A stretch of DNA of 64,000 bases from Patescibacteria group bacterium (GCA_038064495.1 JBBTSZ010000002.1:152934-216933), one strand, 5' to 3'. Numbered from the stretch's first letter, positions 1,741 to 61,845 are shown. Notes: generated from the sequence alone by a model not told the origin. Numbers and translations: made by a program.

Positions 1741-3513
1741 ATGACATTTACATTCTTGTTCCTCGGAATTGCCTTTATTGCTGGAATCCTCACGGTACTT
1801 GCTCCCTGTATTCTTCCACTGCTACCAGTTGTGATTGGAGGGTCGGTAACAGGAGACACCAGTTTCAAACGAGCTTTTACGGTTGTGGCGGCGCTTGGGT
1901 TTTCCGTTGTTGCGTTTACGCTTCTCCTAAAAGTAAGTACGGCCTTTATTACAGTTCCGCCACTCTTCTGGCAGTTGCTTTCAGGAGGACTTCTCATTCT
2001 CTTTGGTATTCTCACGACGTTTCCAAATCTGTGGGAGAGTCTCGGTATCACCGCTCTCTTGAACATTAAGGGAAACCGACTCATGGCAACTGGTGACAAG
2101 AAACAGGGCTTCGTTGGTGATTTGCTCGTCGGCATTGCACTTGGTCCCGTGTTTACTTCGTGTAGTCCTACGTACTTCATCGTGCTTGCAACAATTCTTC
2201 CTGCAAACCCGGTCATTGGTTTTATTTATCTTCTGGCCTACACGTTTGGGCTCTCACTCTCTCTACTTCTTATTGCTGTTGTGGGACAACGCATCGTAGA
2301 CCGACTTGATCTAGCAGCAAACCCGCATGGCTGGTTTAAGCGAGGACTTGGCATTCTTTTCATCGTGATTGGTCTTGCGGTAACGTTTGGCATAGACAAA
2401 ATACTTGCCACCTCACTTCCACAGCAAGCCTACGGAATAACGGGTATTGAACAGAATCTCCTTAAGCTAACAAATGGAAAGAATGGGGATGCAACCTCAA
2501 CGCCAACGTTCGTTCCGCTAGGCACGTCAGCTACACCGCTTACGCAAATAGAAAAATCAACTCGATACGAAAAAGCACCAGAATTAGCTTCACCGAATGC
2601 GTATCTCAATACGGGAGGTGCACCGATTACGATCGGAGAGAATCGAGGAAAGAACGTCGTGCTTATAGATTTTTGGACCTACAGTTGTATCAACTGTCAG
2701 CGAACACTTCCGTACCTCAAAGCTTGGAATGAGAAATACAAGGACCAAGGATTGGTTATTATCGGTGTTCATACTCCCGAGTTCTCATTTGAACAAGTAC
2801 AGCAAAACGTAGCTGACGCGCTCAAACGTTTTGGCATAACCTATCCCGTGGTACTCGATAACCAATACAAAACCTGGAATGCATTTGGTAATCAGTATTG
2901 GCCACGCAAATACCTTATTGATATTGATGGGTATATTGTGTACGACCATGCTGGTGAGGGTAACTACGAGGAAACCGAGAAAGCGATCCAGCGAGCACTC
3001 AAAGAGAGGGCAGAACGTCTCGGACAGGACGGAAGCGGTATTCAGGGCACCGCTTCGGTATCGGCTACCGCGCCTACTTCCGCTTCGAGTCCAGAAACGT
3101 ACTTCGGTGCTTCACGAAATGAGTTCTTAGGAAACGGTAAGCCGGCATCGCCAACCAAGCAATCGCTTACGCTCCCGAGTAGTTTTCCCAAGAACAAACT
3201 ATTTCTTGGAGGTGAATGGGATATTCAATTTGAGCACGCCATAGGATCGTCTGGAGCAGATGTGGTCTATACCTATACTGCAAAAGAGGTCTACCTCGTT
3301 GCCAGTAGTGATGCGGGGGCCGAGATAGAAGTCATGCAGGATGGGAAACCACTCGGAACTATTTCTGGAGCAGACGTGAACGCATCGGGCATCGTTCCAG
3401 TAAAGGAAAGTCGTTTATACAAACTCATTAAGAATGATGCTTCAGGAACGCACACACTCAAACTCCACATGAAGAGTGGTAGCGTACGCTTCTATACCTT
3501 CACGTTTGGTTAG
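1741..3513 (+). CDS. DipZ-like fusion protein: CcdA/DsbD-type transmembrane electron transporter + thioredoxin-like domain (CINC) + C-terminal extracytoplasmic domain
   Basis: N-terminal ~230 aa polytopic with paired Cys (CILPLLP.. / TSCSPTYF); redoxin domain FWTYSCINCQRTLPYL; architecture resembles mycobacterial DipZ. Confidence 0.75.
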   Translation: MTFTFLFLGIAFIAGILTVLAPCILPLLPVVIGGSVTGDTSFKRAFTVVAALGFSVVAFTLLLKVSTAFITVPPLFWQLLSGGLLILFGILTTFPNLWESLGITALLNIKGNRLMATGDKKQGFVGDLLVGIALGPVFTSCSPTYFIVLATILPANPVIGFIYLLAYTFGLSLSLLLIAVVGQRIVDRLDLAANPHGWFKRGLGILFIVIGLAVTFGIDKILATSLPQQAYGITGIEQNLLKLTNGKNGDATSTPTFVPLGTSATPLTQIEKSTRYEKAPELASPNAYLNTGGAPITIGENRGKNVVLIDFWTYSCINCQRTLPYLKAWNEKYKDQGLVIIGVHTPEFSFEQVQQNVADALKRFGITYPVVLDNQYKTWNAFGNQYWPRKYLIDIDGYIVYDHAGEGNYEETEKAIQRALKERAERLGQDGSGIQGTASVSATAPTSASSPETYFGASRNEFLGNGKPASPTKQSLTLPSSFPKNKLFLGGEWDIQFEHAIGSSGADVVYTYTAKEVYLVASSDAGAEIEVMQDGKPLGTISGADVNASGIVPVKESRLYKLIKNDASGTHTLKLHMKSGSVRFYTFTFG

Positions 3514-4841
3514 CTCACTTCTCCGAGGTAGGGAAGGGGGAATATCTTCTCACGCTCCTTTCCGGTAAAAAGTGCATCACTTCGTTTCTTGGACATGCTT
3601 CCCATACCGCGACCTCCTGCTGCCGCTTTACCCGCTTCTATCGCCTTCATAGAGGAGCCCAAGTAAACCGAGTGTCGGCCGTAGCGTTCGTTTAGGGTAT
3701 CAACATTTTCAAAGATGCGTGCCGTACCTTCTACCTTACCCGGGTCACTAAATAAATCGAGCTGCACCTCACGCGCCTCGTGGAGTCCGGTAAGGGTTAT
3801 TCCCGTTGCTCTGTACGTGGTGCCTTTACGAAAGACTTTGAGAAAAGAAGGTTTGAGTGCCTCAATAAGTTCGTGAGGGTTACTAGTGGGGTGGGCGAGT
3901 GTAAGCTGTGCTGCGCGGTAGCGGAAGCTTGAAGATTTTAGAAAAAACGAAAACCCCGTGGCGGAGAGTCCATAACGACGAGCCTTTACGCACGCGCCCT
4001 CCATGTTCTTGGAGAGTTGTGAATACAAAAAAGCAGGGTCGCCCGAAGCAGGTGAGAAGGAGCGAGTCTTTTGTATGGAGTGGTAATTGTCCTTAGTTTC
4101 AGTGACAAGTTCTAGTACGGAAACACCGGAAAGCTCCTGCCAGATTTCAAGAGCGGGTTTAGTTACGTGAGCACGCACCCACACCTCATTTTTCTGTACG
4201 AAATCAAAGGCTGTCTTAATACCGAGCTTATTCAAATGCTCGGTTGTGTTTGGACCAATACCCCAAATCTTTCCAATCAGGGTATTTTTGAGGAACGTAT
4301 CTTTCTCCACCAGACGAATTGGTGTGAAGCCATTTGGCTTTGCGTATTTAGAACCCACCTTAGCGAGTACCTTGGTTGGAGCGATTCCTACCGAAAAAGT
4401 TATATCCAGTTCGTTTTGTAGGTCGTTCTTAATCTTCAGAGCAATCTCCTCATAGCCCATATGGTGGAGACGTCTGAGTCCCGTGATGTCTCCAAAGCAT
4501 TCATCAATGCCGTATTCTTCTACTTGAGGAGTGTAGCGTCGCATGATTTCATACATGCGCAGTGAGTAGAGGGTATAGAGCTCGTAGTCAGACGAGAGAA
4601 TAATCGCGTCCGGACAAATCTTGTGCACGTCAGCCAGACGGATACCACGCGAGACGCCACGAGCTTTCGCCTCGTACGTTGCTGCCGACACTATCCCGCG
4701 CTCCGCTCCCGTGACAACTGGCTTTCCGCGGAGCGCCGGGTTACGAGCAACTTCGCACGCGGCGAAGAAACTGTCACCGTCGACGTGTACTATCGCTTTT
4801 GGATAATAATATGAGCGCCCCCAACCCACCTCAGCTACCAT
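3510..4841 (-). CDS. Y-family translesion DNA polymerase (DinB/UmuC type)
   Basis: VHVDGDSFFAACE...GIDECFGDITG...SVGIAPTKVLAKVGS are Y-family palm/finger motifs; lies immediately downstream of lexA on the same strand. Confidence 0.8.
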   Translation of the reverse strand: MVAEVGWGRSYYYPKAIVHVDGDSFFAACEVARNPALRGKPVVTGAERGIVSAATYEAKARGVSRGIRLADVHKICPDAIILSSDYELYTLYSLRMYEIMRRYTPQVEEYGIDECFGDITGLRRLHHMGYEEIALKIKNDLQNELDITFSVGIAPTKVLAKVGSKYAKPNGFTPIRLVEKDTFLKNTLIGKIWGIGPNTTEHLNKLGIKTAFDFVQKNEVWVRAHVTKPALEIWQELSGVSVLELVTETKDNYHSIQKTRSFSPASGDPAFLYSQLSKNMEGACVKARRYGLSATGFSFFLKSSSFRYRAAQLTLAHPTSNPHELIEALKPSFLKVFRKGTTYRATGITLTGLHEAREVQLDLFSDPGKVEGTARIFENVDTLNERYGRHSVYLGSSMKAIEAGKAAAGGRGMGSMSKKRSDALFTGKEREKIFPLPYLGEVS

Positions 4842-4992
4842 AGGCGCTTTGCTCGTTCGGCATATTTCTCGAAAGGACCGGAATGATTCTCTGCTGAGAA
4901 TCTTCCTCCTGCTCGGCTCGTCAGCCTGCGCAGAGCCCTTTCTCGTAACATCCCTTCACTCGCATGGAATGTGCCAATCATATGCGTTCCCA

Positions 4993-5559
4993 CTAGTATT
5001 TGCGGACAACGCCAGTAACCACCGCCTCAATCGTCAGATTTCCTTTTGGATACATAGGCTTGAAGGCAGCGTTCGCGGGTTCAAGGTAATAATGTTCACC
5101 TGATTTGCGGAGATACTTCATCGTGTATTCGCCTTCAACAGACGCGATAACAATTTGTCCGGGCTTATAGGTAGAGCGACGCTCAACGATAACGAGGTCT
5201 CCGGGACAGATGCCGGCATCAATCATGCTTTCCCCTTTTACTTTGAGAATGTAACTACTCTCTTTGTTTGGCGTGAGGTATTCGTCAAAGTCCATGACAT
5301 CAAGCAGCTCTTCTTCAGCAGCGGAAGGGAAGCCGGCCTCAACCAGACCAAGAAGGGGAACACCAGAAAGGGCACGCCCCGGCGCAAGTCGTCCGAGCTT
5401 ATCTTTAATGAGAATGCCGTCTTCAACGAGTTTGTTAATAAGTTTGTAGACCGAGTTTTTAGAAGCAAGACCAGTCGCTGACATGATTTCCTTATAGCCC
5501 GGCATTCGCTTATGGCGCTCGTAGAAGCCAATAATCTTTCGTTTGTAGGAGTCGTACAT
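4993..5559 (-). CDS. lexA: LexA repressor (winged-helix + S24 peptidase)
   Basis: N-terminal wHTH; C-terminal S24 domain with GESM (Ser) and K dyad, VIVERR...GQIVIA motif. Confidence 0.85.
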   Translation of the reverse strand: MYDSYKRKIIGFYERHKRMPGYKEIMSATGLASKNSVYKLINKLVEDGILIKDKLGRLAPGRALSGVPLLGLVEAGFPSAAEEELLDVMDFDEYLTPNKESSYILKVKGESMIDAGICPGDLVIVERRSTYKPGQIVIASVEGEYTMKYLRKSGEHYYLEPANAAFKPMYPKGNLTIEAVVTGVVRKY

Positions 5560-12473: not shown

Positions 12474-14162
12474 ATGAAATGTATGACGCAGAGCGAAGCC
12501 TTGGATATTTTAAAAACAGGTGCGAACGTGTTTCTCACGGGGGAGCCGGGGAGTGGCAAGACGCATACGCTTACCGCCTACGTCGCATGGCTTCGCAGTC
12601 ACGGCATTGAACCAGCCATCACCGCTTCAACGGGTATTGCTGCAACCCACGTAGGAGGCATGACTATTCATTCGTGGAGCGGTATCGGCATTTTGGAGCG
12701 CATGGATGCGGAGGATTTGGATCGCATTGCGTCAAAAGAGCATGTGGCAAAGCGCATCATGAAAACAAAAGTACTCATCATTGATGAGATTTCCATGCTG
12801 TCGGGTGCTGCACTCACGATGATTGATAGAGTTGCCAAAGAAGTTCGAGGCGACACCCGTGCCTTCGGTGGTATGCAGGTCGTGTTCTCGGGCGATTTTT
12901 TCCAGCTGCCACCGATTACCCGTGGCGGAGCAGTCGCTGAATTTGCATTCGCCTCACGCGCGTGGCGGGACGCAGTACCGCTGGTGTGTTATCTCACCGA
13001 ACAGCACCGTCAGGACGACCCACATTTCCTCTCACTCCTTGCAGCTATTCGTGATGGTTCCTTTGATCACACGCACGCTTCAGAAATCCTTTCTCGTGAA
13101 AGTGACGGGGAAGAGTTAGACACTGAAGTCCCACGTTTATTTACGCACAACACGGATGTGGACCGAATCAATAACGACCATCTTGCAAAACTTCCGGGTG
13201 CTTCGCACGTATTCACCATGCAAGACACTGGTCCGTCGGTTTTGACCGAAGCCCTGAAGCGTGGCTGCCTGTCACCGGAACGACTCGTTTTAAAAGAAGG
13301 CGCAATTGTGATGTGCACCAAGAATAATCCGATAGGTGGCTATGTAAACGGCACCCTCGGAAAAGTAATTGGATTTGTGCGTGGTTCGGGCGAACCAATT
13401 ATTGAAACGCATGAAGGGAAAGAACTCATCATTACTCCTTTGGAGTGGGCGCTTGAAGAATCAGGAAAGATACGCGCAAAAGTAAGTCAGCTTCCGCTCC
13501 GTCTTGCGTGGGCGATTACCATCCATAAGAGTCAGGGTATGAGTATGGACGCTGCTGCCATGGACTTGTCTCGCACCTTTGAATTTGGTCAGGGGTATGT
13601 GGCACTTTCCCGCGTTCGCTCGCTTTCTGGACTCACTCTGCTTGGCTGGAGCGAGCAGGCCTCCATGGTGCATCCGGAAGTTGCGCGCCTGGATGAGCGT
13701 CTCCGGGAAGAATCCATGGCAGCGATTGAGGCCTTTGAAACACTTCGTGAAGAAGGCGACCTCAAAACCATGCATCTGAATTTTATCCGCGCTTCTGGCG
13801 GTGTGCTTGAAGCAAGCGAAGATGGCGAGCGCCCTATGAAGCGCACCACGTACGACGAAACCCTCTCCTTAATCATGGAGGGAATGCCCCTTATTGATAT
13901 AGCAAAGGAACGAAAACTCACGATTGGTACGATTGCGGACCACGCCGAGAAACTTATTTTGAAAGACAGGCTGGATGTTCCCATGCTGCTTTCCCTGATT
14001 CCCGCACGCTTGATTACAGCACTTCCTGACATTCACGAGGTCTTTGAAACGGTGGGTGTGGAAAAGCTTGCTCCTGCGCACGCAAAGCTACGGGCTAAAT
14101 TTACCTACGACGAATTAAAGCTTGCACGTATCCTGTACGTAAAAGAGGCCGAGGTACAATAG
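12474..14162 (+). CDS. Pif1/RecD-like ATP-dependent DNA helicase
   Basis: Walker A GEPGSGKTHTL; VLIIDEISM (Walker B); IHKSQGMS and YVALSRVRS helicase motifs. Confidence 0.75.
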   Translation: MKCMTQSEALDILKTGANVFLTGEPGSGKTHTLTAYVAWLRSHGIEPAITASTGIAATHVGGMTIHSWSGIGILERMDAEDLDRIASKEHVAKRIMKTKVLIIDEISMLSGAALTMIDRVAKEVRGDTRAFGGMQVVFSGDFFQLPPITRGGAVAEFAFASRAWRDAVPLVCYLTEQHRQDDPHFLSLLAAIRDGSFDHTHASEILSRESDGEELDTEVPRLFTHNTDVDRINNDHLAKLPGASHVFTMQDTGPSVLTEALKRGCLSPERLVLKEGAIVMCTKNNPIGGYVNGTLGKVIGFVRGSGEPIIETHEGKELIITPLEWALEESGKIRAKVSQLPLRLAWAITIHKSQGMSMDAAAMDLSRTFEFGQGYVALSRVRSLSGLTLLGWSEQASMVHPEVARLDERLREESMAAIEAFETLREEGDLKTMHLNFIRASGGVLEASEDGERPMKRTTYDETLSLIMEGMPLIDIAKERKLTIGTIADHAEKLILKDRLDVPMLLSLIPARLITALPDIHEVFETVGVEKLAPAHAKLRAKFTYDELKLARILYVKEAEVQ

Positions 14163-41470: not shown

Positions 41471-41555
41471 GGAGGCGTCGCATAGCGGTCTAGTGCGCAC
41501 GCTTGGAAAGCGTGTGTGGGGCAACCCACCGAGAGTTCGAATCTCTCCGCCTCCG
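41471..41555 (+). tRNA. tRNA-Ser (anticodon GGA), class II with long variable arm
   Basis: Acceptor GGAGGCG/CGCCTCC, anticodon loop TTGGAAA, T-arm GAGAG-TTCGAAT-CTCTC, discriminator G; CCA not encoded. Confidence 0.85.
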
Positions 41556-41569
41556 CAAAATGAGAAAAT

Positions 41570-41592
41570 GACGCGCAAGCGTCTTTTTCTTT
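41570..41592 (+). terminator. short hairpin GACGC-GCAA-GCGTC + TTTTTCTTT after tRNA-Ser
   Basis: 5-bp GC stem with T-tract. Confidence 0.5.
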
Positions 41593-41606
41593 AATTTTGC
41601 GAGAGA

Positions 41607-41654
41607 AGCGGAGAGATTCGAACGCCGGAGCGGGTACCAGCTCAGCAGAGCTGG
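41607..41654 (-). repeat. inverted partial copy of the tRNA-Ser T-loop/acceptor block (GCGGAGAGATTCGAAC) followed by an 8-bp hairpin ACCAGCTC-AGCA-GAGCTGGT
   Basis: 16/16 nt identical to the reverse complement of tRNA-Ser 41535-41550; does not fold as a tRNA. Confidence 0.6.
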
Positions 41655-41707
41655 TCGCGAGGCGGTGGCTAGACCAAAGATGAGCGACGGCGAATCTTTG
41701 AGTTGAA

Positions 41708-41741
41708 GCCGAAAGCGTACTCGCGTTCTCTCCGCCTCCGC
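41708..41741 (+). repeat. 20-nt motif CCGAAAGCGTACTCGCGTTC + direct repeat of the tRNA-Ser 3' end (TCTCTCCGCCTCCGCA)
   Basis: 16-nt direct repeat of 41542-41557; the same 20-nt motif abuts the tRNA-Val 3'-end repeat at 58782-58801. Confidence 0.65.
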
Positions 41742-41766
41742 ACTCAAATGCAGTATCATATACCGC

Positions 41767-42279: not shown

Positions 42280-42710
42280 CCGGACTGGCCCAGACGATCG
42301 CTCGGGTGAAAACCCGGGAGGAAAGTCCGAACACAGGCAGATTTCACAATTTGCAGAAAGGTAGCGGGTAACGCCCGTCCGCCGTAAGGCGCGAGGTGCG
42401 AACAGTGACGGTTCAGGGCGAAAGACCTGAACCGTCTGATCTAGCCGAAAGGACAGGTCAGACGAGCTCCTATGGTGACATAGGAGGTGAAACGGCTAAA
42501 TCCTTACCCCTGTGCAAGGCCGTGCCACCACACCAACTTCTTTGTTAGTTATTTGCTTACTAGACATACAGTAAGTTGATTTCTAGTGAGAAAGTTGGTG
42601 TGGTGGAGAGCCGCTCGAGGCCATCGGTAACGATGGTCCCAGATAGATGGTCGTCCGCCTCAAAAGCTCGCTTTTGAGGCGACAGAATTCGGCTTATCGG
42701 ACCAGTCCAA
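42280..42710 (+). ncRNA. rnpB: RNase P RNA (bacterial type A) with a ~80-nt AT-rich extended helix insertion
   Basis: P4 GGAAAGTCCG; GGTAACGCC; AGGTGAAACGG; 3' GACAGAATTCGGCTTATCGG; P1 GGACTGG/CCAGTCC; inserted perfect 17-bp stem CCACCACACCAACTTCT...AGAAGTTGGTGTGGTGG (42527-42603). Confidence 0.85.
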
Positions 42711-42717
42711 TTACATG

Positions 42718-58311: not shown

Positions 58312-58349
58312 TAATTAAAAAGATTCGGCCCCAGCACACGCTGGGGCCG
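58312..58349 (-). terminator. intrinsic terminator CGGCCCCAGC-gtgt-GCTGGGGCCG + AATCTTTTT (minus strand)
   Basis: Perfect 10-bp stem with T-tract on the minus strand. Confidence 0.7.
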
Positions 58350-58356
58350 AGAAAGC

Positions 58357-58647
58357 CTAGGGCTTCTTGAGCTCAATTTGAAAGTTGCGGGATTTGCCGT
58401 CTTCAGCAAGGCCCGTGTCGAAGAGCATGACGCCGGAAACGTCCGACATGAATTTCTTCGCCGCATCGTAGTCCGGGCAGATAAGGTCCAACCGCCTCGG
58501 ACCGTTTGTGCCCGGTACCTTGTTCACCACACGGCAGGAGTCCGAAGATTTCAAGGCCAGAACAACAAGCGGGTTGTCGCCAGCGAAAGCAGGAACGGAA
58601 AGAGTGCCTGCTGTTACCAAAAGAGTCAGTATCTTTAAGGTGCGCAT
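58357..58647 (-). CDS. small secreted hypothetical protein
   Basis: AAGGAGGGTG upstream of the ATG; signal peptide MRTLKILTLLVTAGTLSVPAFA; 96 aa. Confidence 0.55.
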   Translation of the reverse strand: MRTLKILTLLVTAGTLSVPAFAGDNPLVVLALKSSDSCRVVNKVPGTNGPRRLDLICPDYDAAKKFMSDVSGVMLFDTGLAEDGKSRNFQIELKKP

Positions 58648-58769: not shown

Positions 58770-58801
58770 CTGCGCGGTGAGGGAACGCGAGTACGCTTTC
58801 G
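58770..58801 (-). repeat. 20-nt motif CCGAAAGCGTACTCGCGTTC + direct repeat of the tRNA-Val 3' end (TCCCTCACCGCGCA), read on the minus strand
   Basis: Plus strand TGCGCGGTGAGGGA (58770-58783) is identical to 58925-58938; motif at 58782-58801; same arrangement as 41708-41741. Confidence 0.65.
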
Positions 58802-58857
58802 GTCCCTACAGGACCTGTACACGTTGCGGATTTTGCTTCGCAACATGCTCGCAACAT

Positions 58858-58924
58858 CTTCGAATCCCTCACGCTCGTCTCCCAGACGAGCTACCGCGCA
58901 CAAAATCCCCTTACGGGTATTTTG
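58858..58924. repeat. inverted partial copy of the tRNA-Val T-loop/acceptor block, split by an 8-bp hairpin GCTCGTCT-ccc-AGACGAGC, forming an 18-bp stem with the tRNA 3' trailer
   Basis: Plus strand TTCGAATCCCTCAC[insert 58872-58891]ACCGCGCACAAAATCCCC-ttac-GGGTATTTTGTGCGCGGT. Confidence 0.6.
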
Positions 58925-58997
58925 TGCGCGGTGAGGGATTCGAACCCCCGACATCGTCAACGTCAATGACGCGCTCTACCAACTGAGCTAACCGCGC
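58925..58997 (-). tRNA. tRNA-Val (anticodon GAC)
   Basis: Minus strand GCGCGGT-TA-GCTCAGTTGGTAGAGC-G-CGTCA-TTGACGT-TGACG-ATGTC-GGGGGTTCGAATCCCTC-ACCGCGC-A. Confidence 0.85.
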
Positions 58998-59038
58998 ATA
59001 GCTCGCACAATACCGCGACTTGGCCTAGTATTCAATAT

Positions 59039-61757: not shown

Positions 61758-61842
61758 GGAGAGGTGCGTGAGTGGTTGAAACGACCGGTTTCGAAAACCG
61801 GCATACCGCAAGGTATCGAGGGTTCAAATCCCTCCCTCTCCG
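61758..61842 (+). tRNA. tRNA-Ser (anticodon CGA), class II
   Basis: Acceptor GGAGAGG/CCTCTCC, anticodon stem CCGGT/ACCGG with loop TTCGAAA, long variable arm, T-loop TTCAAAT. Confidence 0.85.
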
Positions 61843-61845
61843 CTC

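Follow-up and report, generated by a model that had tools for sequence, protein, structure and literature searches.

Why does a tRNA-Val(GAC) gene in a Patescibacteria genome carry, directly behind it, an inverted and then a direct copy of its own 3′ end? An earlier note on the 64,000 nt of DNA in which this gene lies (hereafter the window) had proposed that the trailers of tRNA-Val and of an unrelated tRNA-Ser are two copies of one inserted element. Our analysis supports that proposal and adds four more loci outside the window. The module at the Val locus, together with its tRNA, spans 58,771-58,997 and is described here in the sense of the tRNA.

58997..58925, minus strand: tRNA-Val(GAC) (ARAGORN; Rfam tRNA model, 68.9 bits).
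58938..58925, minus strand: last 14 nt of tRNA-Val, TCCCTCACCGCGCA, positions 60-73, the proximal copy of the repeated segment (Q).
58924..58901, minus strand: spacer hairpin CAAAATACCCGTAAGGGGATTTTG, composed of CAAAATACCC, GTAA and GGGGATTTTG, the centre of a long palindrome.
58900..58893, minus strand: acceptor part of the inverted arm, TGCGCGGT, the reverse complement of ACCGCGCA.
58892..58873, minus strand: hairpin H1, AGCTCGTCTGGGAGACGAGC, composed of AGCTCGTC, TGGG and AGACGAGC, with 8 bp and a 3-nt loop.
58872..58859, minus strand: T-stem/T-loop part of the inverted arm, GTGAGGGATTCGAA, the reverse complement of TTCGAATCCCTCAC.
58858..58803, minus strand: internal region X, 56 nt, with a helix GTTGCG/CGCAAC that has a variable inner hairpin, then a second hairpin.
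58815..58801, minus strand: hairpin GGTCC TGTAG GGACC, the distal part of region X (from the fold).
58802..58783, minus strand: the 20-mer CCGAAAGCGTACTCGCGTTC (string search).
58784..58771, minus strand: distal direct repeat TCCCTCACCGCGCA of the tRNA-Val 3′ end (string positions).

In a base-by-base re-check, every string that the earlier note had quoted for the Val locus was found where it had been placed, including the 14-nt direct repeat of the tRNA-Val 3′ end, which overlaps the 20-mer by 2 nt, and the pattern stayed when the region was realigned. Two of the dimensions given there needed correction. The 20-mer lies 56 nt beyond TTCGAA, not about 75 nt, and the stem between the tRNA 3′ strand and the trailer is longer than the 18 bp claimed for it: the tRNA-Val 3′ half and its inverted copy form a palindrome that extends from T54 across the trailer as far as the GTAA loop (DNA fold z = -10.9), with H1 and a GT dinucleotide together as a side branch. 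The predicted fold also allows the distal repeat to pair with the inverted arm and so close the module. The whole unit measures 154 bp.

Exactly two occurrences of the 20-mer were counted in the window, one behind tRNA-Val and one behind tRNA-Ser(GGA); the chance expectation for such matches is about 0.01 even with three mismatches allowed. An independent assembly (L005) reproduces the window base for base, hence the feature is not an assembly artefact. The pattern shared by the Val and Ser loci is real and non-random. The second copy is laid out as follows.

41471..41556, plus strand: tRNA-Ser(GGA), host of the second copy (ARAGORN/Rfam).
41558..41742, plus strand: the second copy, a 185-bp unit.
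41570-41583, plus strand: terminator-like hairpin with a T-run, inside the spacer.
41608-41622, plus strand: inverted copy, ending GCGGAGAGATTCGAA.
41709-41728, plus strand: the 20-mer.
41727-41742, plus strand: direct repeat TCTCTCCGCCTCCGCA.

The two loci are less alike than had been described. An 8-bp hairpin splits the inverted copy at the Val locus, as claimed, whereas the 8-bp hairpin at Ser(GGA) (ACCAGCTC AGCA GAGCTGGT) comes after TTCGAA, within the internal region. Similarly, a common spacing of about 150 nt describes the 154-bp Val unit and does not describe the 185-bp Ser(GGA) unit. The earlier note was right that Arg, Phe, Glu and Ser-CGA, the remaining tRNAs of the window, lack the module: in the 400 nt downstream of each, no stretch of at least 8 nt from its last 26 nt recurs in direct or inverted orientation. 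Within the window the T-loop TTCGAAT is found only in the two tRNAs that bear the module.

Module copies were found at six Patescibacteria loci, and their host tRNAs number at least five (Val, Glu and three Ser isoacceptors). Exact-20-mer scans of one genome per species (185,579) and of the JGI metagenome collection gave a copy behind tRNA-Ser(CGA) in a Candidatus Saccharibacteria MAG (L001) and another behind tRNA-Ser(GCT) in L004, which comes, like the window, from Hainich H41 groundwater and whose copy is also present in L013 and L015. Sampling the neighbourhoods of homologues of tsaC, the gene that adjoins the window copy, gave two diverged copies without the exact 20-mer, one behind tRNA-Glu(TTC) in L027-L029 and L033 and one in L035 and L036 behind a tRNA-Val identical to that of the window. 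Six loci is a lower bound, since the large collections were scanned with the exact 20-mer only and two of the six loci lack it. Two further exact matches (L002 and L003) have no tRNA and were taken as chance matches. No match to the 18-nt core of the 20-mer was found in IMG/VR, and a viral origin was rejected on this ground. Relatives of L001 sought by way of its histidine-kinase neighbour showed neither synteny nor tRNAs.

Unit lengths of 154, 185, 151 and 167 bp were measured. Pairwise local alignments of the copies all score far above shuffles (z from 11 to 51), and over 120 nt the Val copy shares 82% identity with L004. Five units at four loci, two of them in tandem in L004, have the same 20-mer, which is divergent in L027; it is the sole block identical across the four canonical copies, with the other internal sequence barely alignable. 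The internal region comes in two types, one in Val, L004 and L035, where region X of Val has its homologues, and the other in Ser-GGA, L001 and L027. H1 is found with either type, which implies that the parts of the module are modular. The family falls into two subfamilies that align poorly with each other. All four exact-motif copies sit behind a tRNA with the T-loop TTCGAAT, and we considered this sequence as a required target; the tRNA-Glu copy, with TTCGATT, rules it out.

These shared sequences bear on one way in which such a locus could arise with no function at all, namely as a by-product of replication template switching at the tRNA trailer hairpin, of the tandem-inversion-duplication type. 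The direct-inverted-direct order is what that process would leave, the first junction lies at the loop of a hairpin and the palindromic TTCGAA marks where the inverted copy stops. Template switching does not, however, account for a common 20-mer, H1 and internal helices at unrelated tRNAs in different organisms, nor for the non-tRNA stretch of 56-86 nt that separates the inverted copy from the distal one. The shared non-tRNA sequence largely refutes this explanation, and we consider it highly improbable.

Folding predictions for the module indicate conserved structure. The module alone folds with z = -5.1 at Val and -5.5 at Ser, and a further fold gave z = -8.5. Between Val and L004, 8 of the 42 predicted pairs have changed on both sides and are still paired. 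H1 is 100% paired in Val, L004 and L027 with compensatory changes at five of its eight pairs, a degree of compensation that one shuffle in 500 and no slid control attained; its constant elements are AGC and a U-GGG-A apex, that is, a closing U-A pair and a GGG loop. The hairpin that precedes the 20-mer likewise keeps its pairing with differing sequences (GGTCC/GGACC, GGCT/AGCC, GGTCA/TGACC and CTCC/GGAG). Furthermore, the tRNA-sense strand is more stable than the antisense strand in all six copies, by 3.8 to 11.7 kcal/mol, and has at least as many G-U pairs in all six and more in five. From these predicted folds, the module most likely acts as a folded single strand, a tRNA-sense RNA. In the predicted thermodynamic optimum of the full precursor the 3′ half of the tRNA is sequestered, with the distal repeat paired to the tRNA body instead.

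The earlier note had asked whether the region might instead be a conserved tRNA-Val trailer of all relatives, with no motif shared outside this genome. The syntenic relatives proved to be empty and the motif was found elsewhere. L006 has tsaD, the DHH gene, tRNA-Val and tsaC in the order of the window and no module, and its DHH start codon lies 8 nt after tRNA-Val. Ordinary trailers without the module also follow tRNA-Val in L007-L011, L026, L027 and L037, and tRNA-Ser(GCT) is empty in L017. The reverse is seen for tRNA-Ser(CGA), which is empty in the window (61758-61843) and filled in its syntenic counterpart in L001. The absence of the module from orthologous tRNAs of relatives indicates insertion rather than a conserved trailer. 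Identity with the tRNA begins at T-loop position 60 in every copy, and the insertion point, as read from the sequence, is the border of T-loop and T-stem. The module supplies its own copy of positions 60-73 as well as a spacer hairpin, so that the tRNA gene is intact, with the tRNA end present once more beyond the inserted module.

Some copies have been amplified in tandem. L004 contains two exact 167-bp units, and the two-unit array is seen in three independent assemblies (L004, L015 and L013, the last with an N-gap inside it). The last, partial copy in the L004 array differs at the discriminator base, with CCAC vs CCGC. At the tRNA-Glu locus, L030 is 100% identical to L027 over 2243 nt and diverges 3 nt past the tRNA, possibly a polymorphism for the presence of the module, as the alignment suggests; three other contigs end inside this tRNA-Glu.

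Direct repeats of a tRNA 3′ end around an insert that restores the tRNA, relatives with empty sites and tandem copies would all be expected if the copies were relics or miniature derivatives (CIME-like attL-attR) of an island that a tyrosine integrase had placed at tRNA 3′ ends. In that case the direct repeat would be the att core, the 20-mer and the internal helices would be arm-type protein sites, and there would be no RNA function. The decay of the distal repeat in the older copies, L027 and L035, also suits a displaced and useless tRNA end. However, we found no integrase, transposase, reverse transcriptase or HUH protein among about 55 ORFs of the window or among the neighbours of L001, L004 and L013 by Pfam, and no integrase lies in or beside any of the six loci. 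An HTH-LAGLIDADG ORF beside the L013 copy was considered as a cis-encoded enzyme and rejected, as it has no detectable homologue beside the window copies. The exact-motif scans of the 185,579 species genomes, the JGI metagenomes and IMG/VR gave miniature copies only and no large element, and independent deletions would not have left a unit of 151-185 bp every time. The compensatory changes and the sense-strand bias indicate, furthermore, a folded single strand, and we know of no attP site with an inverted copy of tRNA positions 54-73. On balance we regard an island relic as unlikely.

The inverted copy deserves closer attention, as it is fitted to its neighbour. At every locus both tRNA-derived arms fit the resident tRNA, with a distal repeat that is shortened in L027 and L035. 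Reverse-complementary to tRNA positions 54-73, the inverted arm runs on imperfectly into the trailer; the direct arm covers positions 60-73. The inverted arm tracks the resident T-loop, reading ATTCGAA where that loop is TTCGAAT and AATCGAA where it is TTCGATT, as in tRNA-Glu of L027. At Val the inverted arm could also be taken as copied directly from the D arm and 5′ end of the tRNA (TGCGCGGT-AGCTC), a reading that fails for L004 and L027. In L027 and L035 the distal repeat has just 7-8 nt and the inverted arm matches the tRNA perfectly. Hence it is the pairing with the tRNA itself, rather than with the distal repeat, that is kept.

Arms of this kind raise the prospect of a non-autonomous mobile element with its own guide, in which the inverted arm steers a trans-encoded recombinase or nuclease to the chosen tRNA 3′ end. 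Two target-complementary segments would flank H1, the element would act as RNA or as folded ssDNA, and the 20-mer would be a handle for the enzyme. Such an element would explain why the target-complementary segments have been re-programmed for five or more tRNAs with H1 and the 20-mer kept fixed, why the inverted arm is perfect where the distal repeat has decayed and why the point of insertion, T-loop position 60, is precise in all copies; the 2243 identical bases of L030 and L027 that break off just past tRNA-Glu fit as well. On the other hand, no candidate gene for the enzyme lies near any copy, the copies of subfamily B have no H1 and there is no match to an Rfam family. IS110 bridge RNA guides are short and split between strands, and the complementarity seen here is one continuous 20-nt stretch to a single target strand. 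The action of the arm in trans is, moreover, hypothetical. We judge a guide of this general kind to be quite unlikely. A self-guided miniature element in particular, whose programmable inverted arm would home a trans-encoded recombinase to the T-loop and 3′ end of a tRNA with the 20-mer as its handle, is in our estimate rather unlikely.

Two features that follow the Val module bear on read-through transcription.

58647..58357, minus strand: 96-aa ORF downstream of the module and co-oriented with it.
58350..58325, minus strand: first terminator-like site downstream of tRNA-Val, after the 96-aa ORF (terminator scan).

The same scan found nothing terminator-like between tRNA-Val and the module and did not pick up the spacer hairpin at 58924..58901. 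Flanking genes are housekeeping genes (tsaC, tsaD, a DHH protein, an M48 peptidase and DUF192). In five of the six copies the following gene points the same way as the module, beginning some 25-125 nt past the distal repeat. A cis-acting RNA that serves either the tRNA, as a signal for 3′ processing or termination, or the next gene, as a leader that couples its expression, would make sense of this orientation. It would also suit the hairpin that comes directly after the tRNA in every copy and is terminator-like at Ser(GGA), and the alternative pairings, which resemble those of an attenuator. Nevertheless, orthologous tRNAs and downstream genes manage without the module, the genes next downstream are unrelated to one another (the 96-aa ORF, DUF192, a histidine kinase, a protein of unknown type and a tRNA) and tandem duplication has no obvious regulatory sense. 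We think a cis-acting RNA very unlikely.

Searches of Rfam with all copies, at gathering and at relaxed thresholds, gave only tRNA-derived or chance matches. Weak matches to sX4, YrlA, sRNA-Xcc1 and miRNA models are due to the tRNA itself or would be given by any long hairpin. A hammerhead or other ribozyme was also considered; GAAA is present after a hairpin, but there is no CUGAUGA before it and no Rfam ribozyme model matched.

The explanation that we prefer, and to which we give about an even chance of being correct, is that the module is a non-autonomous element which inserts at tRNA 3′ ends, amplifies in tandem and is read through into an RNA that mimics a tRNA end. Transcription from the tRNA promoter would read through into the module; at Ser(GGA) the terminator-like hairpin and T-run in the spacer would limit this. 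In the transcript the inverted arm could adopt either of two exclusive pairings, one with the 3′ half of the tRNA itself, giving a long hairpin, and the other with the distal repeat. The former is the predicted thermodynamic optimum of the full precursor, a point against this explanation. Were the tRNA to fold first as it is transcribed, the latter would be preferred and the tRNA left free. The resulting closing helix of 12-14 bp would copy the acceptor/T-stem stack of the resident tRNA, and enzymes of tRNA maturation (RNase P at the 5′ end, 3′ trimming and CCA addition) might then release a stable RNA some 130 nt long. L027 and L035, where the pairing of the inverted arm with the tRNA is kept, weaken the case for such a tRNA-like helix.

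Spread to new tRNAs and tandem growth of this non-autonomous module may both proceed by recombination within the common tRNA-end segment, with a mobilising enzyme that would be supplied from outside, as the module encodes none. Two routes could re-fit the arms to each new host. Gene conversion between the direct copies could be combined with hairpin-templated correction of the inverted copy, or the inverted arm could have a guide function.

The closest known system is the 178-bp repeat of E. coli tyrT/tyrV (rtT RNA, rttR, RF00391). Its unit starts in the T-loop of a TTCGAAT tRNA, at position 59 compared with position 60 here, its size falls within the 151-185 bp of the Patescibacteria units and each of its units, directly 3′ of the tRNA, finishes with a repeat of the 3′ end of that tRNA. 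An inverted copy (GGGGAAGGAU, also given as GGGGAAGGAT) closes the Rfam consensus with the tRNA-Tyr 3′ end, and the predicted folds of the Patescibacteria copies have a corresponding closing helix, which is weak in L027 and L035. Both systems form tandem arrays of variable copy number: 1-10 copies per E. coli genome, with none in 688 of 5426 genomes, and here two units in L004, L013 and L015 and one at each window locus.

In contrast, the module and the E. coli unit have no sequence similarity (local alignment z from -0.7 to +0.5), on which homology was rejected, and the RF00391 model gave no match on the module copies at E up to 10 or up to 1. To our knowledge rtT is found only behind tRNA-Tyr, in Enterobacteria, whereas the Patescibacteria module stands behind Val, Glu and three Ser isoacceptors with arms re-fitted to each; its inverted arm extends through the trailer as a long palindrome, and its invariant 20-mer and H1 have no counterpart in rtT. 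Judging by the layout, the module is the same kind of repeat as rtT, unrelated to it in sequence and not a member of RF00391. rtT RNA has been reported as a stable released RNA, and the Patescibacteria module may be released in the same way. According to a passage in PMC3318445 that cites Bösl and Kersten 1991, rtT RNA derives from one tyrT repeat unit; its function is still called unknown (bioRxiv 10.1101/2024.07.17.603846).

Other known elements resemble the module in part. Integrative elements at tRNA sites and CIMEs share with it the flanking tRNA 3′-end repeat, the reconstituted tRNA, the empty sites and the tandem copies. Unlike them, the module has no integrase, is smaller than a typical attP and combines a conserved folded core that shows compensatory changes with an inverted copy of the tRNA end. 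MITEs and REPINs are likewise short, protein-less, hairpin-forming, intergenic, multi-copy and dependent on an enzyme in trans. However, the ends of the module are copies of the neighbouring tRNA that vary by copy and not fixed terminal inverted repeats, it is found only at tRNA 3′ ends and it lacks the usual target-site duplication, with no duplicated flank outside the arms at Val, Ser-GGA, L001 or L004.

The IS110 bridge RNA, folded attC sites and the CTX phage attP have in common with the module a conserved scaffold with variable segments that match a target, a similar unit size and a hairpin with side branches and bulges. The module differs in having no recombinase gene, with no DEDD or serine recombinase gene found by Pfam at the loci scanned, and in its continuous 20-nt complementarity in place of short split guides. 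The integron R′/R″ boxes (GTTRRRY/RYYYAAC) are absent by eye from the borders GATTCGAA and GCGTTCCCT at Val and Ser, and the match to the attC-derived sRNA-Xcc1 was at chance level (Rfam, 17 bits, E = 2.2). Among tRNA-like RNAs (the tRNA-like domain of tmRNA, YrlA and mascRNA), the closing helix of the module could mimic the acceptor/T-stem stack and discriminator, and H1, with a GG-containing loop, would occupy the place of the D arm. The module nevertheless has no T-loop hairpin, L027 and L035 cannot form an acceptor-like helix with the distal repeat, and neither ARAGORN nor the Rfam tRNA, tmRNA and YrlA models recognised the module (YrlA, 14 bits, E = 4.3).

Known from the late 1970s onwards, the tyrT repeats of E. 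coli with their rtT RNA had seemed an enterobacterial oddity. An rtT-like architecture is now seen in an unrelated phylum, without sequence similarity and at no fewer than five tRNAs, with the arms re-fitted to each. What is new relative to rtT is this re-fitting, together with the invariant 20-mer, the conserved side hairpin and the long palindrome with the tRNA 3′ half. These observations suggest a general way for tRNA 3′ ends to seed structured repeat modules, and the covariation, empty sites and tandem arrays make up a comparative data set for its mechanism. The modules may also give rise to abundant tRNA-like small RNAs in organisms whose genomes are very small. If the self-guided reading were true, Patescibacteria would have a novel class of elements that home to tRNA genes under the direction of a guide, and such elements might explain the origin of rtT.

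In practical terms, the modules interrupt short-read assemblies at tRNA genes and yield spurious ORF calls. A 144-aa 'gene' call that overlies the L027 copy is one such spurious ORF.

At the tRNA-Glu(TTC) locus, two contigs were compared, L027, in which a diverged copy of the module lies behind the tRNA, and L030. The two share 2243 nt at 100% identity and then diverge completely 3 nt past tRNA-Glu (L027:2240-2420 against L030:2240-2266), one continuing into the module and the other into unrelated sequence that runs to the contig end. Three more contigs from the same population stop within tRNA-Glu. The break may represent a presence/absence polymorphism, or some other rearrangement at the same point. 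A public gene call on the minus strand (L027:2179-2613; 144-aa protein) lies wholly over tRNA-Glu, the module and tRNA-Ser(CGA), and is almost certainly spurious.

The tRNA-Val genes of the window and of L035, the contig with a second, diverged tRNA-Val copy of the module, are 100% identical, and the short tsaC/tRNA-Val intergenic region of both (window 58998-59038; L035 2309-2355) contains TTGAATACTAGGCCAA. Among the matches listed, the TsaC proteins of the two lineages are each only around 51-52% identical to the nearest homologue of the window or of each other. The L035 copy (2060-2115, minus strand) has neither the 20-mer nor a clean direct repeat of the tRNA 3' end; in their place stands GGAGAGAATCCCAGGATTCGAA, the reverse complement of TTCGAATCCTGGGATTCTCTCC, which could plausibly be the 3' end of some other tRNA. 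This copy may be chimeric, derived from two modules.

In L001, a Candidatus Saccharibacteria contig, the tRNA-Ser(CGA) that bears a 3' module also shows a mirror-image arrangement on its 5' side (L001:2400-2540). The first 18 nt of the tRNA together with the 10 nt upstream (CGAAGCACCTGGAGAGGTGGCTGAGTGG) recur 109 nt upstream, and an inverted copy, CTCAGCCACC, lies between this 5' segment and its upstream repeat. The region L001:2502-2670 matches Rfam family RF02223 (sX4) at 35.8 bits, which is below threshold. This family, listed as a proteobacterial 'sRNA', has a consensus that is itself a tRNA-Ser with its trailer; in it, a G-run downstream pairs with the T-stem 3' strand. Complementarity between a trailer and the end of its tRNA may occur more widely.

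Beside the tandem 167-bp units behind tRNA-Ser(GCT) in L013 and L004 lies an open reading frame:

ORF of 331 aa, L013:978-1973, the same gene also lying at L004:1-750; domains: HTH (N-terminal) and LAGLIDADG_3.

In L013 it stops 18 nt ahead of the tRNA-Ser(GCT), and no homologue was detectable adjoining the module copies of the window.

Downstream of the tRNA-Ser(GGA) module of the window, at a distance of 540 nt, is the following gene:

Window 42282-42712, plus strand, gene for RNase P RNA, bacterial class A, scoring 130 bits.

Its closeness to the module is probably a coincidence. Elsewhere in the window (3510-5559 and 12474-14162, ranges taken jointly), a DinB-type (IMS) polymerase gene adjoins a LexA-like S24 peptidase gene, and a Pif1-like helicase carries a C-terminal HTH_40 domain. 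These genes are ordinary, yet notable for so small a genome.
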